Translations under genes and position numbers: made by a program
Notes under the pieces: generated by a model
Database searches by the model: none
Seen by the model: only the letters and a program-made list of their open reading frames with translations
What the model was told of the DNA's origin: nothing
NCBI GenBank assembly: GCA_017355425.1
Contig: CP070233.1
Coordinates: 5,341,272 to 5,389,271, forward strand
Source of the DNA: Dolichospermum sp. DET69
GTDB taxonomy: Bacteria > Cyanobacteriota > Cyanobacteriia > Cyanobacteriales > Nostocaceae
Direction of reading: 5' to 3'
Length of the DNA: 48,000 nucleotides
In this document: one piece after another, positions 3,409 through 21,029 of the stretch
How positions within the stretch are numbered: the first letter of the stretch is position 1
Layout of the letters: each line of letters opens with the position of its first letter

Positions 3409-4188
3409 ATGACCAAATCCAGTTTAGGAACATGGAGTCAGCGATTGCTGGCCGCGATTTTTTTAGGTGGACAAGTCTTATTTCACCTAATCCAAGGTAA
3501 AATTCACCGTCGTAATACCCTAGAACAATTGGCAATGGTGGGGCCAGACTCCCTATTTATTGCCTTATTGACAGCTATATTTGTCGGTGCTGTATTTACA
3601 ATTCAGGTAGCACGGGAATTTATCAACTTTGGGGCTGGAAACCTCGTTGGTGGCGTGTTAGCCGTAGCATTAACCAGAGAACTTACCCCCGTATTGACAG
3701 CGGTAATTTTAGCAGGAAGAGTAGGTTCAGCCTTTGCGGCAGAAATCGGCACAATGAAAGTCACAGAACAAATAGATGCTCTGTTAATGTTAAAAACAGA
3801 TCCGATTGATTATTTAGTCATTCCCCGGCTTCTGGCTTGCTTAATCATGCTACCTATTTTAACTTTGCTATCCTTAATAACAGGAATGTCTGGAGGAATG
3901 CTTATAGCCACTCGTATTTACAACCTTTCCGATACAGTATTTTTAGACTCAGCGCGGGACTTTCTCGATATATGGGATATTGGCAGTGCTATGATTAAAG
4001 CTTGTTGCTTTGGTGTATTAATCGCCATTATCGGTTGTAGTTGGGGCTTGACCACTACTGGAGGTGCTAAAGGTGTAGGACAATCAACTACAACGGCTGT
4101 TGTCACTGCCTTACTAGTTATATTTGTTAGCAACTTCTTTCTCTCTTGGGTGATGTTTCAAGGTCCAGGTAGTGGATTAAAACATTAA
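3409..4188 (+). CDS. mlaE: MlaE-family ABC transporter permease (lipid asymmetry / Ttg2B type)
   Basis: 259 aa, polytopic. Typical MlaE blocks: GPDSLFIALLTAIFVGAVFTIQ, ALTRELTPVLTAVILAGRVGSAFAAEIGTMKVTEQIDAL. Confidence 0.8.
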   Translation: MTKSSLGTWSQRLLAAIFLGGQVLFHLIQGKIHRRNTLEQLAMVGPDSLFIALLTAIFVGAVFTIQVAREFINFGAGNLVGGVLAVALTRELTPVLTAVILAGRVGSAFAAEIGTMKVTEQIDALLMLKTDPIDYLVIPRLLACLIMLPILTLLSLITGMSGGMLIATRIYNLSDTVFLDSARDFLDIWDIGSAMIKACCFGVLIAIIGCSWGLTTTGGAKGVGQSTTTAVVTALLVIFVSNFFLSWVMFQGPGSGLKH

Positions 4189-4245
4189 GGGTGATTTAGA
4201 GTTAAGAGAAAGTAATTATGAATTATAGAAATAGGAGAAAAGATT

Positions 4246-4635
4246 TTGACTAGTTCATTGACACCTAAAATCACATCAACAGTGGAACTGAAGCCAAGTT
4301 ACAATATTCCTGTTGTTTTGGTGCTGGTTGCTATTCCCGTACTGTTGATACAACCTTGGATAGGTGGCATATTAACCCTATTAGGTTTGTTTTTGATGTT
4401 GCAAGCTGTAACACTGCGCTTTCAATTTACTGCTACCGATTTTGATCTTTATAGAGGAGAGAAGTTAATTCGGCGTTTTCCTTACCAAGAATGGCAAAAC
4501 TGGCGGATATTCTGGAATCCGGTACCCATTTTGTTCTATTTTAAGGAAGTTAACAGTATTCACTTTTTGCCAATTTTGTTTGACCCCAAAACCTTAAAAT
4601 CTTGTTTAGAAGAACGTTGTCCAAGGATTGATTAG
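4246..4635 (+). CDS. Conserved cyanobacterial membrane protein (DUF3119-like, from memory of the mlaE neighbourhood)
   Basis: 129 aa with two adjacent TM helices. TTG start preceded by aggag about 10 nt upstream. Family assignment is recalled synteny only, not a search. Confidence 0.5.
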   Translation: MTSSLTPKITSTVELKPSYNIPVVLVLVAIPVLLIQPWIGGILTLLGLFLMLQAVTLRFQFTATDFDLYRGEKLIRRFPYQEWQNWRIFWNPVPILFYFKEVNSIHFLPILFDPKTLKSCLEERCPRID

Positions 4636-4822
4636 GTTTTGGAGCTATTCGATTGTATATTTTGTGAAAGATATTTTTTGGATCATGGGAAATTTGGTAC
4701 TCAATCATGTATGAATTATATTATGCCTATGACACGCTGCGCGAATGTGCATAGACGCGAAAGGTAAGAGTTTTGAATATTAAAGTCAAAGAATTTCATG
4801 GCGAAAATTTAGATTATTATTT

Positions 4823-6004
4823 ATGAACCCAGAGGAATCTCAAACTCCAGAATCAATAGATGAGTGGTTGGAACAAATAGAAGTGCAACCCCCTACAGAT
4901 AAAATGTCTGAAACTCCATCTACTGATTTAGAATTAGAAACTGAAGAATTGAATCAGGAAGTAGATTTTAATTCAGCCATTATTGACGCAACGACTCTAG
5001 AATTGGAAAACTCAGTATATACACAAGCAGCGGCAAGATTAACCCATTTGCAGCAAAGGTCATTAGACCTAAACGCGGAAATTGCTCAATTGGAAACTAC
5101 GTATAAAACCCTTCAAAGTCAAGTTAGTGTTACTCAAACTGCACTTTCACAAGTTGTCCAAGAGTCATTATCACAGTTAGAACAACGCAAACAAGCTTTA
5201 CAAATTTCTGTAGAACAACTCGAACGTCGTCAAGAACGGATTCGCAATGAAATGCGGACTACATTTGCGGGAACATCTCAAGATATAGCAATTCGGGTAC
5301 AGGGTTTTAAAGACTATCTCACAGGCAGTTTACAAGATTTGGCATCATCAGCGGAACAAATGCAACTTGTACAACCAGTGAAAGAACGGGAAAAACCAGC
5401 ACCCAGAGAAGCAAAACCTGTTAAAGAACAGTCCGAAATGCCACAACTTGGACAGCAGCAGTTTCAGGATACTACTAAAAAAATCCGTCGCTTGCTTGAC
5501 CAATACCGCAACCAACCAGATTACTATGGACCACCTTGGCAGTTACGCCGCACCTTTGAACCAATTCATGCAGAAAAAATCTCAAATTGGTTGTTTACTT
5601 TAGGTGGACGGGGTGCTTTGCGGACAATGGGTAGCCGCTTACAAAATATTTTAATTGCTTCGTCGGCAATTTCGATATTGCATCAATTATATGGCGACCG
5701 TGTGCGAACTCTAATTTTAGCCAATACACCGGAACGTTTAGGCGAATGGCGGCGGGGTTTACAAGATTGTTTAGGTATCGCTCGTCCTGATTTTGGACCT
5801 GATAGAGGCGTGGTATTATTTGAAGCCCCAACAGCGTTGGCTCAGAAAGCAGAAAGATTAGTTAAAGCCAATCAAATGCCTTTCATTATTATTGATGATT
5901 CTGAAGAACAAATCAGTTTAGCTTTGCTACAATTCCCTCTCTGGTTAGCTTTTGCCCCTGACCCAAAAACTATGAAAGATCGGGATTTTGATGATGATTT
6001 TTAA
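4823..6004 (+). CDS. Coiled-coil protein with a conserved C-terminal domain (DUF3086-like, from memory)
   Basis: 393 aa. Acidic N-terminus, Q/E/L-rich heptad region (LQQRSLDLNAEIAQLETTYKTLQSQ...), globular C-terminal third. Sits between the DUF3119-like gene and plsY, as in other cyanobacteria as far as I recall. Confidence 0.5.
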   Translation: MNPEESQTPESIDEWLEQIEVQPPTDKMSETPSTDLELETEELNQEVDFNSAIIDATTLELENSVYTQAAARLTHLQQRSLDLNAEIAQLETTYKTLQSQVSVTQTALSQVVQESLSQLEQRKQALQISVEQLERRQERIRNEMRTTFAGTSQDIAIRVQGFKDYLTGSLQDLASSAEQMQLVQPVKEREKPAPREAKPVKEQSEMPQLGQQQFQDTTKKIRRLLDQYRNQPDYYGPPWQLRRTFEPIHAEKISNWLFTLGGRGALRTMGSRLQNILIASSAISILHQLYGDRVRTLILANTPERLGEWRRGLQDCLGIARPDFGPDRGVVLFEAPTALAQKAERLVKANQMPFIIIDDSEEQISLALLQFPLWLAFAPDPKTMKDRDFDDDF

Positions 6005-6007
6005 TTA

Positions 6008-6093
6008 GTCAGTGGTCAGTGGTCAGTGGCAAAACAACTGACAACTAACAACTGACAACTAACAACTGACAACTAACAACTGACAACTGACAA
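6008..6093. repeat. STRR-type heptamer tandem repeats (3 x GTCAGTG, then about 7 x CAACTGA/CAACTAA)
   Basis: Read directly: gtcagtggtcagtggtcagtgg ... caactgacaactaacaactgacaactaacaactgacaactgacaa. The array ends 4 nt before the plsY ATG. Confidence 0.9.
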
Positions 6094-6097
6094 ACTT

Positions 6098-6790
6098 ATG
6101 TTTATTTGGTTAACTTTGTGTGTAGTAGTGATTTTATTAGCTTACCTCTTTGGTTCTTTTCCGACTGGATATATTGCCGGGAAGCTATTAAAAGGAATTG
6201 ATATTCGAGAAGTTGGTTCTGGTTCAACAGGGGCAACTAATGTTCTGAGAACTTTAGGCAAAGGTCCTGGAGCATTTGTGTTATTAATTGATGCTTTCAA
6301 GGGAGTATTAGCAATAAATCTAGCTTATGCTTTATGTACTATTGAACCCGTTCAAAATTTAATTCCAGCAAATATCAATATTGAAATTTGGCAACCTTAT
6401 TTAGTCACATTAGCTGGATTTGCTGCCCTTTTAGGACATAGTAAATCAATCTTTCTTGGCTTTACAGGTGGTAAATCTGTGGCTACTGGTGTGGGAATTT
6501 TATTAGCTATAAGTTGGCAAGTAGGATTATCAACATTAGGGGTTTTTGCTGTCGTATTTGCCATTTCTAGAATTGTGTCTTTGAGTTCTATTGCTGGGGC
6601 TGTAGCGGTTTCTATTTTAATGGTAATTTTCCAGCAACCTTTAGCCTATATTCTTCTTGGTATTGCTGGTGGTTTATATGTCATTATCCGTCACCGCACT
6701 AATATTGAGCGATTAATTGCGGGTACAGAACCGAAAATTGGGCAGAAAGTAGAAACAGAAGAGAATTCAAACTTAACAATTCAAAATTAG
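6098..6790 (+). CDS. plsY: Glycerol-3-phosphate acyltransferase PlsY
   Basis: 230 aa polytopic protein with the PlsY signature FGSFPTGY ... GSGSTGATNVLRTLG ... LLGHSKSIFLGFTGGKSVATGVG. Confidence 0.9.
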   Translation: MFIWLTLCVVVILLAYLFGSFPTGYIAGKLLKGIDIREVGSGSTGATNVLRTLGKGPGAFVLLIDAFKGVLAINLAYALCTIEPVQNLIPANINIEIWQPYLVTLAGFAALLGHSKSIFLGFTGGKSVATGVGILLAISWQVGLSTLGVFAVVFAISRIVSLSSIAGAVAVSILMVIFQQPLAYILLGIAGGLYVIIRHRTNIERLIAGTEPKIGQKVETEENSNLTIQN

Positions 6791-6968
6791 CAGCTACAAC
6801 TTTACACTAAGAGAACTCCACAAAAAAATGAACTGCTTGCAGCAGCGCTAGTTCCCTCCGGGACGCTCTCGCGTTCGCTATCCAATGGTATCTTGCCCGT
6901 CCTTGTATTATTAGGGGACCAGATGCCCGCACTACAAGAAATTTTAGGATATTTTTTAAATTGGAAGT

Positions 6969-7428
6969 CTCTAAGAGGATGTTTTAAAAGTTTTCAAGGT
7001 ATAAATTAACCCCTCTGGTAAACCTCTCCCCTATAAGGAGAGAGGCTTTAAAATCCCCCTTCCCTTGTAGGGAAGGGGGGTCTGACAAGTGTAGGTTTTT
7101 TACATTGAGATTGATAATAGGGGCCAGACTTGGCAGACAAGGAGGGAAAGTGGACAAGGAGGAAGGAGAAAGAAGAATTAAAACCTATGAAGATAGGGAA
7201 CATATCGGGCAGAATTTTCCGGTTCTTTTTCTTCATACTCCCTTGTCTACTTTCCTTCCTTGTCTTCCAAGTCCAGCATAAAACCCAATTGTAAAAAACC
7301 TACACCTGTCAGGGAAGGGGGGTAGGGGGGTTAGGTTTTTGGAGATTATTGGTTTTATTTAATACTTTATGGCTAACGCCACGCTATGCCTTCGGCACAC
7401 TTCGTGAACGCTATCAAACACCCTCTAA
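6969..7428. mobile_element. MITE family A, copy 1 (TIR about CTAAGAGGATGTTTTAAAAG), carrying a nested second MITE
   Basis: Left end ctctaagaggatgttttaaaag at 6969; right end caaacaccctctaa ending at 7428, which is its imperfect inverse. The same element without the nested insert lies inverted at 45189-45428. A shorter relative lies at 37257-37429. Confidence 0.7.
7082..7312. mobile_element. Nested 231-bp hairpin MITE with about 24-bp TIRs and a duplicated target
   Basis: Left end ctgacaagtgtaggttttttaca, right end tgtaaaaaacctacacctgtcag (one mismatch). gggaaggggggt is present on both flanks (7070-7081 and 7313-7324). The uninterrupted site gggaaggggggcagggggg is visible in the paralogous copy near 45310 (reverse strand). 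The interior is a long imperfect palindrome. The 62-aa ORF at 7048-7236 lies inside it and is spurious. Confidence 0.75.
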
Positions 7429-7533
7429 CTGAGGAGGTTCATTGAACGCGGATAAACGCAGATAAAAATGTGTTAATCAATGGATTTTAGAATTCTGTGC
7501 AGTATGTTTAATCGCTAATGGGTGCAGGACTAA

Positions 7534-7569
7534 TAAAAAATTGTAGAGACGTTCAGGCTGAACGTCTCT
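7534..7569 (-). terminator. Rho-independent terminator of chlP
   Basis: On the minus strand, 15 nt after the chlP stop: agagacgttcag/ctgaacgtctct 12-bp stem followed by acaatttttta. Confidence 0.6.
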
Positions 7570-7583
7570 TAATTAAGATTCCA

Positions 7584-8804
7584 TTAGGGAGCTAAAGCGT
7601 TACCACGAATCAAACTACCAATGGTTTTGGCAGTAATTTTTAATTGGGTAAAGGGGTTAGCGGGAACTACAGTTTTATAAAGATAACTATCAAAAGTTAG
7701 CTTTTGTACATCCAAATCATCACACATTTCTACAAATGCTTCGCGGGTAGCATCGGAACGATAGAAGACGTTTTGGAGAATGTCTAATACTTTGTAGGTG
7801 AGTCCGTATTTCTTATCCCAACGCTTGATGTATACCTTGAGGTCGCCTTCTGTGGGAATCTGCGCCCCACCGTTAGCGGCTTCTACTATGGCTTCAGCAC
7901 ACATTCTACCAGATTTGGCGGCGAAATAAATACCTTCACCGGAGGACTTGGTAACATAACCAGCCGCATCTCCTACCAAGGCAATCCGTCCAACGACGCG
8001 ACGGGGACGGGGATGTTCAGGAATGGGGTGAGCTTCTACTCTAATGATTGTACCGCCGGCTAGTTTTTCGGCAGCACGGGCGCGAATACCTGCTTGTAAT
8101 TGTTTGATACTGGTTTTATTGACGTGCATTGTACCAGTACCTACTGCGACGTGATCATGTTTGGGGAATACCCAAGCGTAGAAGTCGGTAGAAACATCAT
8201 CGCCAACGTACATTTCGGCGAGTTCGTTGTAATAGGCCATTTTGTCTTCGGGAAGACGAATGCGTTCTTGGAAAGCGATCGCATAATTGTAATCCCCTGC
8301 ATCCATATCCTTAGCAATGCGGGAATTTGCCCCGTCAGCACCAACGATTAAATCCACCTTTAGGGTTTTAGTAACGCCCTGTACCCCTTCTCCTGAGTGG
8401 TCAACGTAATGGATTGTATAGGGGTCTTTATTGTTGCCAGGAATATCAACTTTATGAACGGTAGCGTTAATTAAATTTGTACCTAATTTTACCGCTCTGT
8501 CCCGCAAAAAGCCATCCAGCACTTCTCTACGGCACATTCCTATATATTCATCTTCATTTATCAAATTGATATCAACCTCACGATTAGAGGGAGAAATCAT
8601 TTTCATTTTCCGGACCCGACGGTCAATAATTTCTGGTGGTAAGTCAAACTCCTGCACCATGCACAGGGGAATAGCACCCCCACAAGGTTTGACGTTATCT
8701 AATTTTCGTTCAAACAAATAAGTTTCAATTCCAGCTTTAGCTAGTGTTTCAGCAGTGCATGAACCCGCAGGGCCAGAACCAACAACAGCAACCCGTAGTG
8801 TCAA
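7584..8804 (-). CDS. chlP: Geranylgeranyl diphosphate/chlorophyll reductase ChlP
   Basis: Very close to the remembered Synechocystis ChlP (LRVAVVGSGPAGS...AGIETYLFERKLDNVKPCGGAIPLCMV.EFDLPPEIIDRRVRKMKMISPSN...). The ORF is open to an ATG at 8900, but homology starts at (M)TLRVAVVG. I therefore place the start at the in-frame TTG at 8804-8802, giving 406 aa. Confidence 0.9.
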   Translation of the reverse strand: MTLRVAVVGSGPAGSCTAETLAKAGIETYLFERKLDNVKPCGGAIPLCMVQEFDLPPEIIDRRVRKMKMISPSNREVDINLINEDEYIGMCRREVLDGFLRDRAVKLGTNLINATVHKVDIPGNNKDPYTIHYVDHSGEGVQGVTKTLKVDLIVGADGANSRIAKDMDAGDYNYAIAFQERIRLPEDKMAYYNELAEMYVGDDVSTDFYAWVFPKHDHVAVGTGTMHVNKTSIKQLQAGIRARAAEKLAGGTIIRVEAHPIPEHPRPRRVVGRIALVGDAAGYVTKSSGEGIYFAAKSGRMCAEAIVEAANGGAQIPTEGDLKVYIKRWDKKYGLTYKVLDILQNVFYRSDATREAFVEMCDDLDVQKLTFDSYLYKTVVPANPFTQLKITAKTIGSLIRGNALAP

Positions 8805-9113
8805 AGGTTTTCTCCCAATTATAAATATTTTCCCAAAGTATCCTATCACGGACTTTTGTCCGAAATCCCGCTTACGGTTCAGGTTTTGACAGAAATACAA
8901 TATTCCTTAACATTTCGACATAAAAACTACATATTTTTGGATCTTATGCTAAGATAGTTTTGAGAAAAAGCGCGTAATCGTCATTGTTTCGCAAGTATAC
9001 TGATTTAAGCAAAATTATAATAATCCAAGCATAAATTAGTTTGGTGAATGCGGCTGAGATTTCACAAGATTATTAAAAACCTAAATTTGTAAGGTTTTAG
9101 CACTGCTGAACCC

Positions 9114-9200
9114 CTACTTATCTTCCTGCATACTTCTAACAATTTTTGTGACGATTTTTCTAGGAATAAACCTTACACATTTTGCCATCATTTTATTCAT
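9114..9200 (-). pseudogene. Orphan relic of the 3' end (last 28 codons plus stop) of an SDR gene homologous to the one at 16837-17628
   Basis: Minus strand reads ATGAATAAAATGATGGCAAAATGTGTAAGGTTTATTCCTAGAAAAATCGTCACAAAAATTGTTAGAAGTATGCAGGAAGATAAGTAG = MNKMMAKCVRFIPRKIVTKIVRSMQEDK*. The intact gene ends ...FMNKLMSKCVRFIPRKMVTKIVRSMQEDK* (16923-16837). 74 of 87 nt are identical, and the two copies have the same orientation. Confidence 0.8.
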
Positions 9201-9607
9201 AAAATTAAATTCTGTCATTATTATAATGTGAGGCGATGAGTCTAATTAGTAATTTGCTAACTATTCTTCACTTGTGATACACTCAACGAGAGTTAATCTG
9301 TAGCCTTTGCAATGAGAGTTAATCTATCGCGTTTGGCTACAGCGTGTAAATCTACTGAGAAATAACCGATCCCATCCTCCTGTTGAAGTAAAAAGTAAAG
9401 TCTAGTTTTGTCTAGGTTTTATATAGTAGCAAAACACCTTTTGGGAGAAATCTTAACTTACAGCACTTCCCGGTGTTATGAGGTACATATCTAGCTGGCA
9501 AGATGCCCGCATCACAAGAGTTTCATAATTCAACTTTGTACCTCATCTTCAGCGGAAAACGCTGTATATGTTTGTTGATTAATATTAGTTAGTAAAAAAG
9601 TATCGTC

Positions 9608-11359
9608 ATGGGATCTCACAAAAACGAAGAGAAGAAAGGAGAATATTCGATGTTCCAATGCGAAAAAGTTTTCCTAGAGCAGTTAGAACCCACGACATCA
9701 CTAGAATACCAGTGGGATTTAGTATTTGATGATGAACGAAGAGTTAGGTGGAAAGGTTTTTATACTGGACCTCTGACTTTGACCACTGAAAAAATTGCAG
9801 CACTGTGTCTAAAGCTTTTGGGGATAGACATCACAGAATTGCAAAAAGTAGCATCTCAGGAATTACAGCCTACTCCCCTCGGAAAGAATTGGCCAGCCCT
9901 AATCATGCACTCACAAACCCCCGATGTCAAATCCTTTGAACAAGATCTCCTCGATCTGATGAATGGTCCGACTCCTTTAGACCACACAACTTATGCTGAA
10001 GCTCGTTCCGCTTATTTTGCGCGACAACAGGATCTAGCGATTGGTCGTACTAACCCGTGGAAAACCGCAGTTGAATTGGAGAAGATTAATGCCATTGAAA
10101 TTCCGGGTATTGATTACTACTACCTTTCCCATGCGCTGCTGCTACTTGCTGAAGAGCATCTAATCTCACCCAGTTTAGAAATTAATCAGATCCTTGAGTT
10201 TTTGAGAAGCAACGAATATACGATTGTTCGCGTATATAACCTGGAGAAAGAGATGCAAATATTTCTTATCTGGCTAAAGCGCTTGGCAAATTTAGAAAAC
10301 CTATCTATAGACACCAATACTCCTGATGTAGCTCAATCTTGGAATCGCAAAAGTATACTCTATCCAACAGTTCGAGACGCACTGGCACTGGAAACAATTT
10401 TACTAAACCACTCCCCTCGACATATATTAGAGGTTGAATCACGTTCTTCACTTTTATATAAAAAACTAAACCTGACGATTCCCGTACTACCGGGCTATAC
10501 AATTGAACGTTCGGGAGAAGATATAGACTCTTTTGTTCAGCAAACAATTCAGGCCACAAGGTTGCTCAAGACAAGATATGGACTTGAACGCGCTTGTCTA
10601 AAAGCTTCCGAAGCAGCTGATGGCGCACGTATTTTTGCGGGTCTTGATCTCAGAGATGAATTGAAAATCGAGGATCTTGCCAAGGATGCTTATCAGCATG
10701 GAGATGACTATCTCCTCGAAGCACATATTGAATATCTGCAAGTTAACGTAGGTGGACAAATGCTGAAAACTACACCCTCTGCACATATCCGTTGGGGAGA
10801 GGTTGCAGAAGGTTTAACCCTGCAAATGACACAGGGAACTTCCTGGAAAGGTAATATTTATATCAACGAAGCAGTTGGGGATTTATTCGGAGTCTCCAAA
10901 GCACATTATCAGATTATTGCTGAAACAATGAACGATTTTCTATGTGCCTTTCAAAGTAAAAACCTTGGCTTAATGATTGCCGGCTTTGATTTCGCTATTG
11001 GTAGAATCGGGGGAGTATTTGAGGACGAGGTGCTGGTAGCCGCACAAGACCCGAATGTTTCTTTCAATGGTGCCGAATGTCTCAGAATCTTTAGAGAAAA
11101 GGTTAAGGATCACCACTTATGGACAGATGATCACTTTTATGCAGTTACCAGGGTGATACGTCCAACCCTTCAGGGCACACTCCCCGTTATTCGACAAATC
11201 ACTGATGTTGTTACTGATACAGAAACTTATGCCACCACGATTGCCTCAATTCCTGGTTGTTGGGGTATGATCGCGGTGGCAAATAGAGATCCTGAAGAAG
11301 TGCTCAAAAAGCTTTCTTCTCTTTATGATTCTTTGATTCGTCAGAATCTCATTACCTGA
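9608..11359 (+). CDS. Hypothetical 583-aa protein; the C-terminal half looks ATP-grasp-like (possible amide ligase)
   Basis: Long clean ORF with no recognisable N-terminal domain. The C-terminal half has a pattern reminiscent of ATP-grasp folds: LKASEAADGARIF ... YLLEAHIEY ... GFDFAIGRIGG..EVLVAAQDPNVSFNG (compare K-x-S, E-x-x-I and D-F-x...E-x-N). This is pattern recognition only. Confidence 0.35.
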   Translation: MGSHKNEEKKGEYSMFQCEKVFLEQLEPTTSLEYQWDLVFDDERRVRWKGFYTGPLTLTTEKIAALCLKLLGIDITELQKVASQELQPTPLGKNWPALIMHSQTPDVKSFEQDLLDLMNGPTPLDHTTYAEARSAYFARQQDLAIGRTNPWKTAVELEKINAIEIPGIDYYYLSHALLLLAEEHLISPSLEINQILEFLRSNEYTIVRVYNLEKEMQIFLIWLKRLANLENLSIDTNTPDVAQSWNRKSILYPTVRDALALETILLNHSPRHILEVESRSSLLYKKLNLTIPVLPGYTIERSGEDIDSFVQQTIQATRLLKTRYGLERACLKASEAADGARIFAGLDLRDELKIEDLAKDAYQHGDDYLLEAHIEYLQVNVGGQMLKTTPSAHIRWGEVAEGLTLQMTQGTSWKGNIYINEAVGDLFGVSKAHYQIIAETMNDFLCAFQSKNLGLMIAGFDFAIGRIGGVFEDEVLVAAQDPNVSFNGAECLRIFREKVKDHHLWTDDHFYAVTRVIRPTLQGTLPVIRQITDVVTDTETYATTIASIPGCWGMIAVANRDPEEVLKKLSSLYDSLIRQNLIT

Positions 11360-11408
11360 GTTTTCCATTCTTAATTAGGGTTTGCTGAATAAGTCTTTTC
11401 GTAAGGAC

Positions 11409-11452
11409 TAGGAGTCAGGAGTCACCGAGTCAGGAGTCACCGAGTCAGGAGG
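11409..11452. repeat. STRR-type heptamer tandem repeats (GGAGTCA / CCGAGTCA series)
   Basis: taggagtcaggagtcaccgagtcaggagtcaccgagtcaggagg. Related arrays lie at 47124-47154 (inverse), 47950-47985 and 42090-42105. Confidence 0.85.
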
Positions 11453-12266
11453 AATAAGGGACTTCCAAGAAATAAATTATCCCAATAAACGAACCACAGA
11501 GGCACAGAGAACACAGAGAGAGAATTTTTGCGTCAGTTTTGGGACATTTTTTTATTTGGAAGTCCCTAAAGAGGAGGAATAAAGAGGAGGAAGAAGAAGG
11601 AAGAGAAGGTTGGACAATTAGTCCTCAAATTTACGCGATTATTTTTGATGAAAATGCCAGGGTTTTAAACATCTATTGTCAATAATCTTGCACTTGTTTG
11701 GTTATAAAACCCTGCAAACCTTTATCTATCAACCCTTTTGCTTTCTTTTTTGCAAACCCTAATTAGACATCTCCAGAAAGGAAATACGCCTATCGTAGAA
11801 GCGGGTAGGAATTCTCGGATCTACATTTTTTTTGGAGGTGTCTATTGTATCCTACCTTCCGCACCCTAAACTGTCACACAACGAAAATTGGTTGTTTGGA
11901 GATTTGGTTTTAGCGAACTGCTTGCAGCAGCACTAGTTCCCTGCGGGACGCTCCGCGTAGTTTGCTTCCCGTAGGATACGCTATCGCCTGCCAATATTTT
12001 TTGATATTAGTATAAAATTTAATAATCATGGTTAATTTGTACAGTGTATAATTCCTAAAAATTTTCCTCATGACAAGATTCTTAAATCAATTTCTTTAAT
12101 ACAAAGTTCTCTCTGTGATATTATCAATCGTATGTTGTACTGTCTCAATATACCTACCATTTTTGAGCCTCGTAATCAATCAAATTTTCTTGGCTTTTAT
12201 ATGGTCATGTTATTTAAACCGTGTTACATTAATCAGTGAAAGACGCAATCCATAGTGTAGTTTAAG

Positions 12267-13259
12267 ATGATTCATGAATCAGTAGCAAGCTCTATAGGTC
12301 AAACACCCTTAGTATCTTTGTCTAGATTATTCCCCTATAAAAACATTAAAGTTATAGCAAAACTGGAGTTTTTAAATCCTGGAGGTAGTATTAAAGACCG
12401 TCCGGCTCGCTTTATTATTGAACAAGGGTTGCAGGATGGAAGCATTTCTAGAAAAACCCACCTAATTGAAAGTACGTCTGGGAACTTAGGTATTGCCTTG
12501 GCCATGCTGGCACGAGTCCACGAGCTTAAATTCACGTGTGTAGTAGATCCCAAAATATCAACAGTGAACTTACAGATGTTGAAGCTTTTGGGGGCTAATA
12601 TTGAGATGGTTGACACACCTGACAATCAAGGCGGCTATCTACAGTCTAGAATTAAACGGGTGCAGGAATTATTAAAGACCATTCCCCAAAGTTATTGGAT
12701 TAACCAGTATGCTAACGAACTTAACTGGAAGGCACATTACTATGGAACTGGCGCTGAAATTGTTTCCAGTCTAGACCACCCCATTGATTGTCTGATCATT
12801 GCTACCAGTACCACAGGAACACTATTGGGAGTGTCGAAACGTCTCCGTCAGGAGTTTCCTAACTTGCGAGTTGTTGCCGTGGATGCTGTGGGTTCGGTTA
12901 TTTTTGGGGCACAACCAGGCGCGAGGGAGATACCTGGCATTGGTGCAAGTCGGGTACCTGAACTTAGCAGTCAGCTTGAAGTAGATGAAGTTATCTACGT
13001 TAACGATAGAGAGTCCGCTTTGGGGTGTCGCGCTCTTCTTGAACATGAAGGTATTTTTGCTGGTGGTTCTTCAGGGTCAGTGATTGCCGCTATTCAGAAA
13101 CTCATCCCGACTTTGCCTTCTTCTTACCGTGTCCTCACTATTTTACCTGATCGAGGAGAACGGTACTTAAATTCAGTCTATGACGATAACTGGTTAATGC
13201 AATTGCCCACGCCACTAACAACGGCTAAACTACCTGATATGATCACCCAGATGGTCTAG
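12267..13259 (+). CDS. sbnA: SbnA-type PLP enzyme: N-(2-amino-2-carboxyethyl)-L-glutamate synthase (step 1 of L-2,3-diaminopropionate synthesis)
   Basis: 330 aa. Block-for-block similar to the remembered S. aureus SbnA: KLEFLNPGGSIKDRPA, HLIESTSGNLGIALAM, CVVDPKIS, YWINQYANELNW, PGIGASRVPE, EGIFAGGSSGS, ILPDRGERYL. Confidence 0.85.
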   Translation: MIHESVASSIGQTPLVSLSRLFPYKNIKVIAKLEFLNPGGSIKDRPARFIIEQGLQDGSISRKTHLIESTSGNLGIALAMLARVHELKFTCVVDPKISTVNLQMLKLLGANIEMVDTPDNQGGYLQSRIKRVQELLKTIPQSYWINQYANELNWKAHYYGTGAEIVSSLDHPIDCLIIATSTTGTLLGVSKRLRQEFPNLRVVAVDAVGSVIFGAQPGAREIPGIGASRVPELSSQLEVDEVIYVNDRESALGCRALLEHEGIFAGGSSGSVIAAIQKLIPTLPSSYRVLTILPDRGERYLNSVYDDNWLMQLPTPLTTAKLPDMITQMV

Positions 13260-13299
13260 TTTGCAAACGAATCTAGCACTTATCCCCAGCAAAAAAAAT

Positions 13300-14328
13300 A
13301 TGACCTCCCAACTTACACAACCGCCAAAGATTCTTTATCTGAGCAAATCAGACATTATTCAACTGTGCGGAAATTCTTCTCAGTTGTACATAGATGCAGT
13401 CAGCCATGCTCTTGTTCTTCATGCTGAGGGCAAAATTGTCCAACCCCTCAAGCCATATTTGCGCTGGCGCGGTGATGAAAATCATATTGCTGACCGGATA
13501 ATAGCCATGCCGGCCTATTTGGGTGGTGATAACCCAGTCGCTGGTTTAAAGTGGGTTGGAAGTAAGCATGATAATCCTTCTGTACACGGTATAGACCGAG
13601 CTAGTGCGATCATCATTCTGAATGACACCCAAACTCATTACCCAATTGCTATTCTTGAGGGCAGTCTAATCAGCGGTATGCGAACCGCGGCTGTTACTTC
13701 GGTAGCGGCTAAGTACCTAGCGCGAACAGGTTTTTCTCGTGTAACCTGCATTGGCTGTGGACCCATTGCCAAGATGCAACTATTGACAATTCTTGAGCAA
13801 TTCCCTTTAATTACTACCATTTATCTATTCGACCTCAACTCCCTCGCTGCTAAGAATTTAGTTCTTGAGCTAAACCAACACTTCCCAGGAGTAGAATACC
13901 ATATTGCAGCAACGGCAGAGGAAGCAGTGCGCCAGGGCGAGGTGGTTATAACCTGTACGGTTACGGACAAACCCTATATACCCTACGAATGGCTGCAAAA
14001 AGGAACTTTTGTGAGCAATATTTCCATTATGGACCTACACAAAGAGGTCTTCTTGAAAGCTGATAAGGTAGTAGTGGACGACTGGGAACAATCCAATCGT
14101 GAGAAGAAAATAATTAATCAGTTAGTAATTGAAGGGAGCTTTTCCCGCGAGCATCTACACGCGGAACTAGGTGAAATAATCCTTGGAAACCGATCAGGTC
14201 GGGAGTCAAATGAAGAAATCATCGTTCTTAATCCCATGGGAATGGCAATTGAAGATATGGCTTGTTCCCAAAGCATCTACGAGAAAGCCCTGGCTACGGG
14301 GGTTGGCTTTTGGTTGAATCTTGATTAA
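13300..14328 (+). CDS. sbnB: SbnB-type NAD-dependent ornithine-cyclodeaminase-family enzyme (step 2 of L-2,3-diaminopropionate synthesis)
   Basis: Matches the remembered S. aureus SbnA partner SbnB: VQPLKPYLR, HIADRIIAMP, GLKWVGSKHDNPS, SLISGMRTAAV, GEVVITCTVTDKPYIPYEWLQKGTFVSNISIMDLHKEVFLKADKVVVDDW, NREKKIINQLV, LNPMGMAIED. The track ORF opens at a TTG at 13261. I prefer the ATG at 13300 (MTSQLTQPPKILYLSKSDI), which aligns with the SbnB N-terminus. Confidence 0.85.
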   Translation: MTSQLTQPPKILYLSKSDIIQLCGNSSQLYIDAVSHALVLHAEGKIVQPLKPYLRWRGDENHIADRIIAMPAYLGGDNPVAGLKWVGSKHDNPSVHGIDRASAIIILNDTQTHYPIAILEGSLISGMRTAAVTSVAAKYLARTGFSRVTCIGCGPIAKMQLLTILEQFPLITTIYLFDLNSLAAKNLVLELNQHFPGVEYHIAATAEEAVRQGEVVITCTVTDKPYIPYEWLQKGTFVSNISIMDLHKEVFLKADKVVVDDWEQSNREKKIINQLVIEGSFSREHLHAELGEIILGNRSGRESNEEIIVLNPMGMAIEDMACSQSIYEKALATGVGFWLNLD

Positions 14329-14453
14329 GGGCAAATCACAAATTGGACAGGGAGATAATATTTAATATCAATGCAACGGGATACAAGTGTTGGCATTGTG
14401 TTATGTAAATCTCAATCAGTTGTATACTACTTGAATTTTAAAGGAGTTGTCAG

Positions 14454-15497
14454 GTGCTAAGTATTAATCAGTTACAGGAAAAGTCCTCAAATTTACAAGA
14501 TCGGAGTTGGCCTCCTGTCAACAAATTTCAGGGTTTCAGCGGTTTAATCAAAGACTTTCTTTATTTAGATGTAACTCAGCAATATGAAATATTAGCTAAA
14601 AGCAGGGATAACTCTGAAGAACATGGTAAATTTATTCACGAAAGTTTAGGATTAATTTATGCCTATGTACTCGGTTATGAAGATAGCCCTTGCTATATCA
14701 CGACCAATGAAGAATTAGAAATAAAATTACAGCAATTAAAGATTGTTTTAGAAAGAGAATTAATGAATTATTGGTTAGATATACCAGCAATTCCCCAACA
14801 GCTAAATCAGGGGGAAGCGGTTGATTATCTTAACAAAAAAATACTTGATAATTCCGGCGTTTACCATGAACTATTTGATTATATTGCGACAAAGGCCTCA
14901 AAAACGGCTGTTATAACTTTTTTACAAAATGAAGTCATCCGCAATGAGGTGGTTGATGATGAGGTAGCTTTACTGGTAAAGGGTTTACAAGGGCTACTAA
15001 AAAAGGTAGTTGCATCAAATCTTTGGGATGAGTGCGGTCGTGGCAAGCTTAATGATTTCCACACATATTGGTTAAGAATGTTGTTGGAAGAATTAAATGG
15101 TTGGAATCAACTATCTGATTATCGAAAACTAACGAGTCCCTGGTACGCTAAGATAACATCAAACTCATTTAATATGCTGTTGACACGTCCAGGATACAAA
15201 TATATGGCATATGGAGCTTTCTTGGTATTTGAAAGTTGGGTGCATCCACATTTTGAAAGAATTATTGCGGGTTTAAAAAGAGTTGGTATTGATCAGGAAG
15301 ATTTGAGTGTTTATTTTACTGCTCACCTAGCCATTGATCAATATCACACAAGAGAGTTACTTGCCGGTATAGCTAATCAAGAGCCGAGGTTAAATCAAGC
15401 AGAAGTTGACCAAATTCTTCTGGGATCACATTTAGCAATAGCAGCGGGAACAGCACAGTATGGGCGGATGTTGTCTTATCTTTCAACTCTCAAATAG
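14454..15497 (+). CDS. Heme-oxygenase-like diiron oxidase/oxygenase (HDO; iron-containing redox enzyme family)
   Basis: 347 aa, all-helical. Candidate six-ligand diiron set: E193-x9-H203 (WDECGRGKLNDFH), E260 (FESW) and H291-x3-D295-x2-H298 (HLAIDQYH). GTG start with AAGGAG 7 nt upstream (14441-14446). Confidence 0.6.
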   Translation: MLSINQLQEKSSNLQDRSWPPVNKFQGFSGLIKDFLYLDVTQQYEILAKSRDNSEEHGKFIHESLGLIYAYVLGYEDSPCYITTNEELEIKLQQLKIVLERELMNYWLDIPAIPQQLNQGEAVDYLNKKILDNSGVYHELFDYIATKASKTAVITFLQNEVIRNEVVDDEVALLVKGLQGLLKKVVASNLWDECGRGKLNDFHTYWLRMLLEELNGWNQLSDYRKLTSPWYAKITSNSFNMLLTRPGYKYMAYGAFLVFESWVHPHFERIIAGLKRVGIDQEDLSVYFTAHLAIDQYHTRELLAGIANQEPRLNQAEVDQILLGSHLAIAAGTAQYGRMLSYLSTLK

Positions 15498-15621
15498 TAA
15501 GCTGTTCGGAATTTAAACTGTATAACTTAAAACAAGTTTAATTATTGTGGGGTGGGACTCCTTACCCGCCCTGTTTATTTTGTACAACATTACCTCCAAA
15601 AGTCTTTGCCACAAAATCATT

Positions 15622-16593
15622 ATGACTAATACCGTGGAATTGCCAGAGCAACAGACAGATTTTAGATCCGATAAAATACAGATTATTTTATTGTTCGTAG
15701 CAGTATTTACTTTATCACTAGCAGCAATCTTAATCAAATTTAGCGAACAATATATTGGTCCTAATGCTACGATTTTCAATCGCTTCTGGATAGCCACTTT
15801 TATTCTAGGACTGTGGAAAGGTGGTAAATATTTAGCTTCTCAACTATTCCAAGATACTTCCAGTGTAAAAGAAAGTTATACAATATTCGATATATCACTA
15901 TTGGTGTTAACGGCTATCTTAATTTCACTTTCCCAGCTTTCCTGGGCTTGGTCTATAACTACAACAAGCGTTGCTAACGCGAATTTATTACATAATATGA
16001 CCCCAATTTTCACCATATTAGGGGGATGGCTGCTATTAAATTATTCCTTTAACAGTAAATTTCTCATCGGTATGGTTTTAGCTATAGGAGGAGCTATAAC
16101 TATTAGCATTCAAGATTTACAAATTTCTACAGATCATCTGAATGGTGATAGTTTAGCTTTACTATCTGCTATATTTTTTGGAGCTAACAATTTAGTGGTA
16201 GAAAAATTAAGAGTCAAGTTTTCGACAATAAGCATATTATTATGGTCTTGTTTTTTCCGAATATTTTTGACATTTCCAGTAGTGATATTAACTGAAGATA
16301 AAATTTTCCCATCTTCCTGGCAGGGATGGTTACCAGTCATCTTTCTAGCTATTTTCTGCCAAGTGATTGGTTCGGGGATTCTCTTCTATAGCCTCAAACA
16401 CTTCTCTTCAGGATTTATTTCTTTGTTCCTTCTGCTTGAGCCGATCATTGCTACAATTCTTGCATGGATCTTCTTTGGTGAAGATTTAAGTCTCCTAAAT
16501 GGGTTAGCTTTTATTGTAGTTTTAGTTGGTATATATGTCGCTAAATCTGCTCAAGAATCTGATGGTGAGGTTAACCCTCTTCCGTCAAAATAA
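15622..16593 (+). CDS. EamA/DMT-superfamily transporter (probable metabolite exporter)
   Basis: About 10 TM segments arranged as two EamA-like halves. The track ORF starts at a GTG at 15547. The ATG at 15622 (MTNTVELPEQQTDF...) just before the first TM helix is more plausible. Confidence 0.7.
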   Translation: MTNTVELPEQQTDFRSDKIQIILLFVAVFTLSLAAILIKFSEQYIGPNATIFNRFWIATFILGLWKGGKYLASQLFQDTSSVKESYTIFDISLLVLTAILISLSQLSWAWSITTTSVANANLLHNMTPIFTILGGWLLLNYSFNSKFLIGMVLAIGGAITISIQDLQISTDHLNGDSLALLSAIFFGANNLVVEKLRVKFSTISILLWSCFFRIFLTFPVVILTEDKIFPSSWQGWLPVIFLAIFCQVIGSGILFYSLKHFSSGFISLFLLLEPIIATILAWIFFGEDLSLLNGLAFIVVLVGIYVAKSAQESDGEVNPLPSK

Positions 16594-16836
16594 GTACCTG
16601 GAAAAAATTAATTACACAAACATCAGGGCTGAAATCCTTGACTGGTAAAGAATTGGTAAATAACTAATATGTAATTAATTCTGTCTAGGTACTTATGAAT
16701 CTGAATCGCAAAAATAATTGCCTAATTTCCAAATCCAGATGAAACATTAATAAATCGCCAAGAACTTTATGTGGCGTTAAAATTCGTTTTTATGACAAGG
16801 GGACAGGGAAGAGGTCTTGGGAGATTTTACTTTTTA

Positions 16837-17628
16837 TTACTTATCTTCTTGCATACTTCTGACAATTTTCGTCACCATTTTCCTAGGAATAAACCGCACA
16901 CATTTTGACATAAGTTTATTCATGAAACCAGGAATAATAATAGTTTTTCCTTTAATTAAAGCATCATAACCAATCTGTGCAACCGTTTCCGCATCCATCA
17001 TTTTTTTACCTTTAAGCATTTTAGAATCAGCCATGCCGCTTCTTTCATGAAATGCTGATACAGTAGAACCCGGACAAAGAACTGTTACAGTTACACCTGT
17101 ACCTTCTAATTCATTAGCGATCGCTTCTGAAAATGATAAAATATAGGCTTTAGTGGCAAAATACACTGCCATTAACGGACCTGGTTGAAATGCAGCCGCA
17201 GAAGCAACATTTAATATCTTGCCATGACCTTGTTTAACCATTTGTTTGAGAAATAACTTGGTTAAATGGGTTAAACAAACTAAATTTACCTGTAACATTT
17301 CCAGTTCGGTACTGAGGTTAGTTTCATTAAATAATCCATGATTTCCAAACCCGGCATTATTTACTAAAATATCAACCTTAATTCCAGCCTCTTGCAACTC
17401 TGTAAAAATTTCTTCTGGAGATGTGGATATAGATAAATCTTTGATAATAGGTTTAACAGAAACCCCAAACTCTTCTTGAAAATCAACAGCTATTTTCGTA
17501 AGTTTTTCACCTACCCTATCTACCAATACAAGATTGTAATTTTCACGAGCAAAAATCCGGGCTAACTGATAACCAATACCATTGGCTGAACCCGTAATTA
17601 AAACAGTTCCCTGACATTTTACGTTCAT
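16837..17628 (-). CDS. Classical short-chain dehydrogenase/ketoreductase occupying the hetN position of the HGL island
   Basis: 263 aa. TGSANGIGYQLA (TGxxxGxG), NNAG, S...YFATK (YxxxK). It lies directly downstream of hglB/hetM, as hetN does in Anabaena PCC 7120, but it has no RGSGR motif. Confidence 0.8.
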   Translation of the reverse strand: MNVKCQGTVLITGSANGIGYQLARIFARENYNLVLVDRVGEKLTKIAVDFQEEFGVSVKPIIKDLSISTSPEEIFTELQEAGIKVDILVNNAGFGNHGLFNETNLSTELEMLQVNLVCLTHLTKLFLKQMVKQGHGKILNVASAAAFQPGPLMAVYFATKAYILSFSEAIANELEGTGVTVTVLCPGSTVSAFHERSGMADSKMLKGKKMMDAETVAQIGYDALIKGKTIIIPGFMNKLMSKCVRFIPRKMVTKIVRSMQEDK

Positions 17629-17675
17629 TTTAAAAAAGTTAATTAGCTAGGCACGGTTTACCCGTGCCAATACCA

Positions 17676-19184
17676 TTAGGCAAGAGTCAAGAAACCAGTT
17701 TGCACTAAATAGGATGTATAAGTCATCAACAATTGAGAATCAATAGGAGGACAAACAATAGAACTGCCTTTTAGTGCTTCTAGAGTTTCTTCACAACTAA
17801 TAATTGGTCTTCTAGCTTGTAAATACAAATCAGGAATAGTGATTTGTTCATCAGACCAACGTTCTAGTAAAAACGGACGCAAAGTGTATAAAGGATTATC
17901 TTGAGATGTCACATTATTAATTAACTCTGCTTGCCATTCTTCGTAGGGAATCATCTTCAATGAAAATCCAAAAGAACGCACCCAATCAACCAAAGATTTT
18001 AAGGAAGCAGGTTGAGGATGTTGTAAGTGAAAAGCCTTACCTACAGATGTTTCTTGTCGAGAAAGATAAACAACAGATTTGCTCACATAATCAACAGGAG
18101 ACATATCTAACATATAATCTACATCAGGAAAAGATCCCATTTGTAGACAACCTTTAATCATCAAATTGATAAAGTCATGGGTATTACAAATCCCAGTTTT
18201 GCTATCTCCAGAAATTAAAGGAGGTCGGTGAATAGTAATAGGTAATCCTCGACTACCAGCAATTTTCACTAATTTTTCCGACACCCATTTAGTTTGGGAA
18301 TAACCGAGAAAAATGCCTTCCCAGTCATCAAAACTATCCTGCTCTTTAACTACCTGACCAGCATAGGCACTTGACTCAAATACAGCCACACTAGAAACAT
18401 AATGCAATGGCTTCACTTTCGTTTGACAAGCTAAACGCAAAACTTCCTGTGTCCCTAAAACATTGGCTGTTTTTAATGCTGAGTAAGGATAAACATAATT
18501 CAGTAAAGCTGCACTATGATAAATAGTATCAATATTAGCGGCTAAACTTTCAAATTGTTCTGCACCAATTCCCAAATGTGGCTGTGCTAAATCACCAATG
18601 ATAGGGATAATACGGCTACTATATTCATCTTGCCAAATTCCATATTGTTGCAAATTATTTTCTAATTTGCTTTTACCTTCTTCCACATTACTAGCACGAA
18701 CCAAGCAATAAAGAGTTGCTTCAGATACTTCTAGCAATTCCTTGATGATAAAAGCCCCTAAATAACCCGTTCCTCCGGTTAAAAAGATATTTTTGGGGTT
18801 AGTGATAAAAACTGTATTACCTACAGGTTGAATAGTAGGGTCTAGGACAGCTTCCGCAGCTAAATCTAGAAGAGGAGGAGCAAAACTAACAGGGGAATTT
18901 GTCCCTGAATCTTTTGCTTGAGAATCATCAGTTGATTCTTCTGACAACCGTTGAGAAAGGGCTGCAATATTGGGATAATGCCAAAGTAAAATAGGAGAGG
19001 GTTTAAATCCTAGTAATTCTTCTAATTTACTAATGATCATCATGGCTTGAGCGGAATCCAAACCATAATTTTCTAAATTTTCATTAACATCAATTTCTGC
19101 GGTTTCTACTCCGACAACTTCCGCGAGATGAGAAACTAGAAATGCTTGAATACTTTCAGCATTATAAGACTGTTTTAAACTCAT
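17676..19184 (-). CDS. hglB: HglB/HetM: acyl-carrier domain fused to a thioester reductase (terminal reductive release)
   Basis: 502 aa. N-terminal carrier domain ([13 protein letters not shown]). The reductase part has [15 protein letters not shown] (NAD(P) binding) and YSQTK (YxxxK). Its start is 2 nt after the hglA stop. Confidence 0.85.
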
Positions 19185-19186
19185 TT

Positions 19187-20854
19187 TTACTTCTCCAATA
19201 TAGAAGGAATTGGTTGATATTGACTGTAATAAGCAGGCATTTGCAAACCTTGCATTTTTAAACTGTGGCTGCGATATAAAAACCCAGCCCCTTTCATAAT
19301 TTGGTTAGCAACATCAACAACATGACGATGATTAGGTTCTGACAAATATGAACCACGTACCCAGTCATTGAAGCCACCCATAGCTGGTCCACACCAAATT
19401 TGATAATCAACTTCCCGACCTTTTTCACCAGTGCTAGACCAGCGGGAAGATAATCCTAAATACCAGCGAAAGATTACAGCCATTTTGAGTTTAGGATTGT
19501 TAACAGCTTTCCCCAATTTTTCTGGATTCTTTTGGGATAAATAAGCCGCTGCACCTTCCCAAACTTCTGCAAGACTTTTACGGAAAATTTGTTTTTCTAA
19601 CTTATCTTTTTCTGCTTGCGGAATCTGTTCAATAGAGTCGTAAGTGCGATATAATTCATACAATTTTTGCGCTCGCATGGGAAACATTGTCCCCCGTTTG
19701 AGAACTTGTAATTTCACTCCCATTTCAAACATATCGGCTGCGGGAGCCATAATCATATCCGCCATTTCTGCTTGTGCTAATAACTTTTTAGTATGTTCAC
19801 AAGCACCAGACTCAACACAAGATTGATTAATTGAACCAGTCATTATATAAGCAGCACCCATCATAAAACCAGCTAAAGCTGATTCTGGTGTGCCAATTCC
19901 TCCAGCTACTCCAATCCTAATAGGAACTGAGTAATTATATTGAGCTTGAGTTCCATCTCTGAGCGCAATAATTGAAGGTAATAAACATACTAAAGGACGA
20001 TTATCTGTATGACCACCAGAGTCAGCTTCAACAGTAATATCATCAGCCATGGGCACTTGACTAGCCAAATTGGCTTGTAATTCAGTAATTAGTCCTTGCT
20101 GAATTAATTCTTTGAGAATTCGTTCTGGTGCGGGTTGCAAAAATTTAGTAGCAACTTCCCGTCGGGAAACTTTAGCTATTACCTTATTTCTGATATCAAT
20201 TTGGTTAGCTGCATTCAATCTTAACCCAGCAACTCGATAATAAACAATATTCGGAGTTAAGTCTAAAAATGCTGATGCTTCTACTGTTCTGACACCATAT
20301 TTTAGATATAAATCTACAGCCCGGCGTTCAATAGCTGGTTCGTTAGGACTGTGAATTAAATTGAACGCGTAGGGTCCATCGGGTAACGCTTGTTGAATAT
20401 TATTAATCGCAGATTCTAAGCGTTCTGGAAGTAAACCACCTGCACCAAAGGAACTTAAAATTTTCTCTTTTCCTAGGGCAATTACCATTTCTTCAGAAGA
20501 AATACCTCCAGCCATTGCTCCCGTCATATAGGCATATTTTACACCATAAGCAGCAAGAAAACTAGAATCCCCAAGTTGTTGTAACCGTAGGGGTGGAAGT
20601 GATATTAAAAGTTCTGCTTGTCCAGATACACTATCATCAGCAGGTGCTAAATAGCCATCATTAGTAGCACCAATTTTTCCGGCTATTTTAATGAGATAAC
20701 AAGGTTTATCTAATGTTAAAAGTTTATCTTTGATAGCACTTTTTTCAAAGCTAACACAATCTAATGAACCTTTCCAAACTTGGTTTTGATGATTACAGGT
20801 AAAAAAACCAAGCCCATTATCATGTTTATTTAGTACCGTCTCGATTGTTGTCAC
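19187..20854 (-). CDS. hglA: HglA: PfaD-type FMN enoyl reductase
   Basis: 555 aa. PfaD/nitronate-monooxygenase-like blocks ([35 protein letters not shown]). GTG start with gagga upstream. Confidence 0.85.
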
Positions 20855-20965
20855 GGTAATTATTCCTCAAATAAAAAAAAGTTGAGAATGAAGAATTTAG
20901 CTCACGCAAAGGCGCAGAGGCGCAAAGAAAGAGAGTAAATACAATTTCTATTAAATTTTTTCTTC

Positions 20966-20995
20966 CCTCTGTGTCCTCTGTGCCTCTGTGGTTCG
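20966..20995. repeat. Dispersed short repeat with core GAACCACAGAGGCACAGAG
   Basis: cctctgtgtcctctgtgcctctgtggttcg here is the inverse of cgaaccacagaggcacagagaacacagagag at 11490-11520. Related GAACCACGAAGGAGCG-type copies lie at about 25843 and 42040-42062. Confidence 0.7.
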
Positions 20996-21029
20996 TTTAA
21001 AAAAGAGCTTTAAGCTCAACCCAAGTGCA

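Follow-up and report, generated by a model that had tools for sequence, protein, structure and literature searches.

How did a block of five genes come to lie between two diverged copies of the end of a single gene? The question is raised by a 48,000-nucleotide (nt) stretch of Dolichospermum sp. DET69 (contig CP070233.1), called the window here. All coordinates are positions in it, and it is 100% identical to GCA_018295985.1 contig JABWAG010000001.1. The gene order runs from an SDR gene on the minus strand, through five plus-strand cargo genes that form the 2,3-diaminopropionate (Dap) islet, to an orphan copy of the SDR end and then to chlP on the minus strand. The functional SDR (16837-17628, minus strand, 263 aa), recognized by its open reading frame (ORF) and a match to Pfam adh_short, closes a heterocyst-glycolipid (hgl) cluster that includes an ACP-thioester reductase, PfaD, and ketosynthases. 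The original prediction took this arrangement for the "classic footprint" of DNA that inserts into a gene's 3' end and brings a replacement end with it, a reading that comparison with related loci does not support. The islet was probably imported by homology-facilitated illegitimate recombination (HFIR), anchored on SDR/hgl homology, closed at its far end by an illegitimate microhomology joint, and independent of any machinery encoded by a mobile element.

The duplication itself is clear. A repeat search of positions 7000-19000 returned, as the longest direct repeat, a 90-nt pair at 9115-9204 and 16838-16927 with 87% identity, and blastn scores the pair at E about 1e-24. The two minus-strand direct repeats that had been said to encode the SDR end are thus borne out, at 9114-9203 for the orphan, which ends in TAG, and at 16837-16926 for the functional copy, which is SDR nt 703-792 including its TAA stop. 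The difference between the stop codons had also been seen correctly. Homology of the orphan to the native gene begins at 9203 (SDR nt 703), 3 bases beyond the 9200 noted earlier. On the minus strand, 9200-9114 reads ATGAATAAAATGATGGCA...GATAAGTAG and 16923-16837 reads ATGAATAAACTTATGTCA...GATAAGTAA. Both copies encode the last 28 codons of the SDR, and the peptides agree at 25 of 28 residues. The count of 74 identical positions in 87 needs a small correction, to 75 of 87 on the same coordinates. Ten sense codons differ, seven of them synonymously, as claimed; these changes are not all at third positions, because AGG/CGG differs at the first. The remaining three give the replacements M4L, A6S, and I16M. 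The longest exact run common to both copies is 13 nt. The 87-mer was found at SDR 3' ends alone, in the window and in about 36 Nostocales loci, and is not a dispersed repeat family. Among these loci, a second C-terminal SDR copy occurs only in the window and in Dolichospermum LEGE 00240 (L005).

Which copy is native is answered by Dolichospermum sp. ST_sed8 (L002), where one SDR directly adjoins chlP. The window is collinear with L002 over 1066-9203 and 16838-27640. Window 9203-8850, covering the SDR end, the intergenic region, and the chlP start, is 98.6% identical to L002 10703-11056 over 354 nt. The orphan matches the functional end of L002 at 86 of 87 positions, the sole difference being synonymous, while the window's own functional end differs from it at 11. 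L002 is therefore the islet-free relative that had been predicted, with the SDR directly before chlP and a single orphan-like end. It supports the cargo as an insertion and the orphan as the old resident end (SDR nt 703-792). The predicted layout also stands, with the cargo between a new and an old gene end and the old flank beyond, and so does the proposal that the functional end comes from a diverged functional homolog. Because the empty site in L002 matches both the orphan and its flank, the insertion is taken, from sequence comparison, to be 9204-16837.

The old downstream flank consists of the native SDR-chlP intergenic region (8901-9113, no strand), collinear with L002, and of chlP, a geranylgeranyl reductase gene (7584-8900, minus strand; TIGR02028, 723.7 bits), which is syntenic with L001, L002, L003, L008, L017, and others. 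A scan with the SDR protein, using one genome per species, gave 27 Nostocales loci. None of the 27 contains any of the islet genes, and the next gene after the SDR in the closest relatives is chlP. Every chlP-linked relative examined (L001, L002, L003, L007, L008, L009, L017, L086, L087) is free of any trace of the islet. Across lineages the gene after the SDR differs and may be chlP, fpg, a TPR gene, CRISPR-Cas, or Uma2 plus a methylase.

Nearly the same islet stands beside the SDR of another species. The metagenome contigs L074 and L075, 100% identical over their 2.2-kb overlap, carry an islet 98.7-99% identical to that of the window. The L074 backbone agrees at 99.3% with Aphanizomenon flos-aquae FACHB-1287 (L004), whereas its identity to the window is only 90%. 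In the L074/L075 lineage, the islet lies just past the SDR stop, behind a 140-nt spacer, as in the window. This spacer (16697-16836, no strand) reaches from the SDR stop to the EamA gene and moves with the islet. Leaving aside a 9-nt indel, it agrees with L074/L075 at about 97%; it is 84-85% identical to the post-stop sequence of L004 and absent from L002. In FACHB-1287, a remnant of 77 nt from the EamA 3' end still stands at the corresponding spot after the SDR.

Because the islet adjoins the SDR in L074/L075 and the EamA remnant does so in FACHB-1287, the SDR-islet linkage is judged from sequence to predate the window event and to be old in the A. flos-aquae-type lineage. A more distant islet, in L095/L096 (84-90% identical), does not adjoin an hgl-type SDR, so the linkage is specific to lineages of the bloom-forming ADA clade (Anabaena/Dolichospermum/Aphanizomenon). 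A further metagenome contig, L097, covers the EamA side in a donor-like population and ends 84 nt before the SDR. Two side observations concern these contigs. In L004, a long CRISPR array begins directly after the EamA remnant (10916-11030 onward) and is accompanied by cas2 and cas1, so in this genome a CRISPR-Cas locus has either replaced the islet or cut it short. At one end of L074, positions 1-99 match an internal part of the Uma2 gene (L075 71-169) with 100% identity and run directly into the HDO gene at its start (window 14458). This joint is either a deletion variant that lacks the ATP-grasp, sbnA, and sbnB genes or an assembly artefact.

The far end of the islet shows how it was joined. 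The non-coding far end of the imported DNA (9204-9607, no strand) is found in two kinds of relative. L075 leaves the window sequence at 9234 and, after 108 nt, enters a Uma2 gene, with no orphan; this Uma2 is 96.5% identical to the Uma2 beside the L005 SDR. L089-L093 are five metagenome contigs, each from a separate assembly, in which the ATP-grasp gene is 98.9% identical and the window sequence is common down to 9199. Beyond that point all five continue alike, with 247 nt of other sequence. Positions 9234-9607 are accordingly common to L075 and L089-L093, and the 30 nt at 9204-9233 occur in L089-L093 only. A short-word BLAST of 9204-9233 against the first set of loci was empty, and L089-L093 later accounted for these 30 nt.

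Recipient-type empty site, donor-type flank, and recombinant are thus all in hand, a rare natural case in which a junction can be read to the base. In the SDR direction, the donor type (L089-L093) reads ...AATTTTAT and then CTGGCTC beyond the joint, likewise ...GACAGAATTTAATTTTAT and then CTGGCTC. The recipient type (L002) reads ...GGGTTTAT and then GAATAAA, likewise ...ATTCCTGGGTTTAT and then GAATAAAATG. The window reads ...AATTTTATGAATAAA, likewise ...GACAGAATTTAATTTTATGAATAAAATG. In this three-way comparison, the donor type, the recipient type, and the window share only TTTAT, the junction microhomology (9203-9199, minus-strand reading), which corresponds to resident SDR nt 699-703. A simulation with these sequences gave an overlap of at least 5 nt in 0.75% of random donor/recipient joints. 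The illegitimate joints of HFIR usually have microhomologies of 3-10 bp (PMC3240628). Derivation of the L089 arrangement from that of the window is unlikely, because it would need a second chance breakpoint within the same five bases. The far junction thus lies at three places, 9199 in the window, 9234 in L075, and at least 247 nt further out in L089: the near, SDR side is constant and the far side is variable.

On the near side, the functional SDR is a mosaic. Compared with L002, it has 10 mismatches in nt 1-402 and 53 in nt 403-792; compared with L001 and L002 in turn, it has 10-11 in nt 1-360 and 44-53 in nt 361-792. The maximum chi-square breakpoint against L002 falls at SDR nt 402, with 0 of 10,000 permutations as extreme. 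The foreign-looking tract therefore spans about 390 nt rather than 87, and resident SDR nt ~403-702 are missing from the window. From the L001/L002 mismatches, the left homologous crossover would fall within SDR nt ~376-402 (17227-17253, minus strand), an approximate placement because both the gene and the hgl cluster are mosaic.

These observations fit a single event. In a related ADA cyanobacterium, the Dap islet would already have been linked to the 3' side of the hgl SDR. A donor fragment would have begun inside the donor SDR, taken in the 140-nt spacer and all five cargo genes, and ended about 400 nt past the ATP-grasp gene; it would have met an L002-like chromosome with the SDR directly before chlP. 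A homologous crossover in the SDR/hgl anchor, near SDR nt ~400, would have secured one end, and the non-homologous far end would have been joined at TTTAT in resident SDR nt 699-703. Resident SDR nt ~403-702 (about 300 nt) would thereby have been replaced, the donor 3' part would now complete the gene, and the last 90 resident nt would have been orphaned 7.6 kb downstream, beside their original chlP flank. The diverged SDR 3' part would have arrived together with the islet, in one step, perhaps on linear DNA taken up by natural transformation or in an interrupted transfer. Several features expected of HFIR have a counterpart here: a homologous anchor on one side, marked by the nt-402 switch in a generally mosaic locus; a non-homologous joint at a short microhomology, TTTAT; foreign DNA contiguous with the anchor in the donor, seen as SDR-spacer-EamA in L074 and as the remnant in L004; and loss of the resident DNA between anchor and joint.

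Several findings weigh against this account. SDR nt 403-792 matches no allele among 69 genome loci and the top protein clusters and contigs, the best match having 5 mismatches in the last 87 nt; the donor allele has thus not been found, and co-import of the SDR 3' end with the islet is inferred only. The SDR, like the hgl cluster as a whole, is a mosaic whose patches vary between strains, and the 3' half of the window gene resembles different genomes from stretch to stretch, so that the nt-402 breakpoint may belong to another event. Within this patchwork, L001 and L002 switch near nt 504, L002 and L005 are nearly identical over nt 505-648, and window nt 361-504 resemble L005. The high identity between the window and L074 ends at the SDR stop, with 8 differences in the 87 nt of the SDR end, which requires an unsampled donor or a further recombination event. 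Finally, a further piece of SDR lies beyond the islet in L089-type donors and would allow a double homologous crossover followed by deletion.

This last possibility is the main rival, although it is rather unlikely. It holds that the functional donor SDR served as the left arm and the relic SDR fragment of the donor as the right arm of a double homologous crossover, giving a long hybrid orphan that was later shortened by a deletion between two TTTAT sites. The donor-type contigs L089-L093 do have a suitable and correctly oriented fragment, SDR nt ~188-636, which lies 247 nt past the islet. TTTAT also occurs at each end of the supposed deletion, which would have removed the 247-nt flank and SDR nt ~191-702 and trimmed the orphan to 90 nt. 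Homologous recombination is also far commoner than the one-sided kind in laboratory systems (PMC3240628; PMC5361080). The scheme nevertheless calls for one more event, although the islets, only about 1% diverged, leave little time for it after the transfer, and no intermediate has been seen. The L075 junction, moreover, has no SDR remnant, so an illegitimate event is needed there in any case.

A second alternative, improbable on present evidence, supposes that the 90-nt duplication began as two identical copies, for example through a staggered or repair-generated target duplication at islet insertion, and that the functional copy was later overwritten by allelic gene conversion from another strain. 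The SDR patchwork among ADA genomes, with the switches just described, and the fall in window-L074 identity at the stop codon would both suit such a history. However, the 140-nt spacer past the stop is foreign to an L002-type backbone and contiguous with the islet. A conversion tract ending at the spacer must come from a donor that carries the islet, and the scenario then collapses into co-import. A 90-nt target duplication also has no known mechanism here.

The site-specific island implied by the original prediction fares worse still and is very improbable. In that model, a mobile island entered the SDR 3' end, the 87-nt repeat was its attachment site, and it carried the replacement end. The order of the parts, from the gene with its new end through the cargo to the old end and its flank, suits the model, and an empty site exists. 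Against this, no integrase or recombinase lies in or beside the cargo. The absence of an integrase had itself been claimed correctly: every cargo ORF was assigned to a different family, and none of the small ORFs matches such an enzyme. Searches of the islet also found no transposase and no terminal inverted repeats; the only transposase near an islet is the ISAZ013 copy inserted into the SDR relic of L089. Plasmid, phage, and viral collections gave only distant sbnA/sbnB matches and no copy of the islet. Identity between the repeats is only 87%, no exact match being longer than 13 nt, and the replaced tract reaches about 300 nt upstream of the repeat, being diverged from SDR nt ~403.

The relatives argue in the same direction. 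The attachment junctions are not constant: islets at least 98.9% identical have three far junctions in three lineages, and that of L074/L075 has no orphan. The L074 SDR end differs at 8 of 87 positions although its islet is 98.8% identical, so the substitute end does not travel with the islet. Orphans elsewhere start at other SDR positions (nt ~188 and ~641-654, compared with 703), and the 5-nt microhomology at the junction is typical of illegitimate joining. Insertion of a transposon or of a miniature inverted-repeat transposable element was likewise rejected: no inverted repeat pairs the islet ends, and the 90-nt repeat is gene sequence rather than a target duplication. Least probable of all is an ancestral islet with its duplicated end, or a remnant of a tandem SDR paralog, lost from L002 and similar strains by recombination between repeats: flanking direct repeats can mediate such a deletion and leave a single chimeric end, but no chlP-linked relative shows an islet trace, the islet's identity to the copy in another species (about 99%) far exceeds that of the backbone (about 90%) and so points to recent transfer, no further SDR sequence lies upstream of the orphan, and repeats sharing at most 13 exact nt are a poor substrate.

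If one-sided import is the mechanism, the window need not be its only product, and SDR relics in other lineages bear on this. In L089, a relic of SDR nt ~188-636 lies downstream of the islet beyond the 247 nt, has an in-frame stop, is 96% identical to the allele of Anabaena sp. LE011-02, and is cut by an ISAZ013-type insertion sequence. In L005, the order is SDR, Uma2, orphan (nt ~641/654-792), DNA methylase, and chlP. Its orphan is 90.6% identical to the functional copy, with six amino-acid changes in 45, and a 70-nt intergenic segment is duplicated too, as though one haplotype had been attached to the end of another. With that of the window, three relics thus lie downstream of cargo, in gene orientation, starting at nt ~188, ~641-654, and 703. 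Their shared polarity is expected if the conserved hgl cluster supplies homology and the variable side does not. There is about an even chance that the SDR at the hgl edge is a recurrent one-sided recombination anchor, through which the Dap islet and other cargo such as Uma2 pass between species-level ADA lineages, each passage leaving a displaced piece of SDR. If so, the relics (nt ~188, ~650, and 703) would form a readable record of successive transfers and would point to natural uptake of linear DNA in these cyanobacteria.

The cargo begins, at the far end, with a gene for a 583-aa protein (9608-11359, plus strand). Pfam, NCBIfam, and PDB sequence searches gave it no match. Its predicted structure (pLDDT 93, pTM 0.91) resembles biotin carboxylase, PurK, and ATP-grasp peptide ligases in Foldseek (E about 1e-11 to 1e-10), so structure prediction and fold search agree with the earlier description of an ATP-grasp-like protein. 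Homologues occur in Streptomyces, Bacteroidota, and others. It is followed by sbnA (12267-13259) and sbnB (13261-14328), each exceeding its NCBIfam equivalog cutoff, by a heme-oxygenase-like iron enzyme (HDO; 14454-15497), and by an EamA/DMT transporter (15622-16593), the last two identified by Pfam/NCBIfam and all four on the plus strand. The genes sbnA/sbnB have been reported in few cyanobacteria, and 2,3-diaminopropionate is a proposed precursor of the neurotoxin BMAA (PMC9414260). In the two nearest islet relatives outside the ADA clade, an S-adenosylmethionine (SAM)-dependent methyltransferase stands directly upstream of the ATP-grasp gene (L071 8568-9353, L073 695-1495), and no remnant of a methyltransferase of this type was found in window 9204-9607. 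The window lacks this gene, and the L071/L073 enzyme could be relevant to whether N-methylated Dap (BMAA) is a product of islets of this kind.

The EamA end carries a 134-nt insertion (16563-16696, no strand), present in the window and L097 and missing from L074, L075, and L004. It is flanked by the 8-nt direct repeat TCAGATTC, contains an inverted repeat (16590-16616/16670-16696), replaces the native EamA C-terminus, and supplies the present EamA stop codon. Beyond L097, no further copy was found in the loci compared. Short dispersed repeats occupy non-coding parts of the islet (9284-9335, 9345-9570, 11410-11960), recur at window 6830-6874, 20964-20999, and 47126-47155 and in other ADA genomes, and include a 26-nt tandem pair at 9284-9335. 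Composition is only weakly informative, with an islet GC of 0.395 against 0.376 and a tetranucleotide distance of 0.145 against 0.112 +/- 0.017 for other chunks of the window. This marginally atypical composition is consistent with a donor from the same clade.

Two observations concern the hgl region itself. Between two of its polyketide-synthase genes, an AT-rich unit of 100 nt (GC about 0.26) is repeated 28 times in tandem with 96% matches and fills the gap at 27727-30536. The SDR at 16837-17628 has KQGHGK where its homologue in Anabaena sp. FACHB-709 (P0172) has QQGEGK, in a comparison made by eye. HetN of Anabaena PCC 7120 presumably carries ERGSGR at this position, and the "hetN-position" SDR appears, by eye, to lack the RGSGR patterning motif.

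Among known systems, integrase-borne islands in the 3' ends of genes (for example tRNA or tmRNA genes) show the same order of gene, substitute end, cargo, and displaced end. They differ in that the window has no integrase, its junctions are variable, its repeats are imperfect, and the substitute end is not borne by the islet. The case is a warning that a pattern of gene, new end, cargo, and old end is not always an integrase footprint.

The displacement arrays of rhs, contact-dependent inhibition (CDI), and the Vibrio cholerae type VI secretion system (T6SS) are also similar: a new 3' end with its cargo arrives through a conserved 5' part, the old end is orphaned downstream, and repeated rounds leave relics, here in three lineages. 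HFIR has been proposed as the mechanism of that displacement (PMC5361080). Unlike polymorphic toxin tips, the SDR ends are equivalent alleles, with seven of ten differing codons synonymous. There is no immunity logic, and the orphans decay, with replacements in L005 and a stop in L089, and show no sign of selective retention. Membership in these arrays was rejected on the near-identical end peptides (25/28) and the decay of the orphans.

The closest parallel is HFIR as defined in Acinetobacter baylyi, Streptococcus pneumoniae, Pseudomonas stutzeri, and E. coli conjugation (PMC3240628). As there, one end is homologous and the other is joined at a microhomology, here of 5 nt; the resident stretch in between, here about 300 nt, is lost; and the foreign DNA is contiguous with the donor anchor. 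The insert is larger, 7.6 kb compared with an average of about 1 kb in the laboratory (PMC3240628), and the host is a filamentous cyanobacterium. The defined cases are experimental, while this one is reconstructed from natural genomes, and its anchor crossover has no certain placement in a mosaic region. The literature searched held no earlier description of such a case in cyanobacteria. A 2,3-diaminopropionate islet would here spread between bloom-forming cyanobacteria about 90% identical to one another without mobile-element machinery. The process is a known form of recombination in a well-resolved natural example, to which the locus adds Dap-islet transfer across species-level lineages and a recombination hotspot, used repeatedly, at the border of the hgl cluster.

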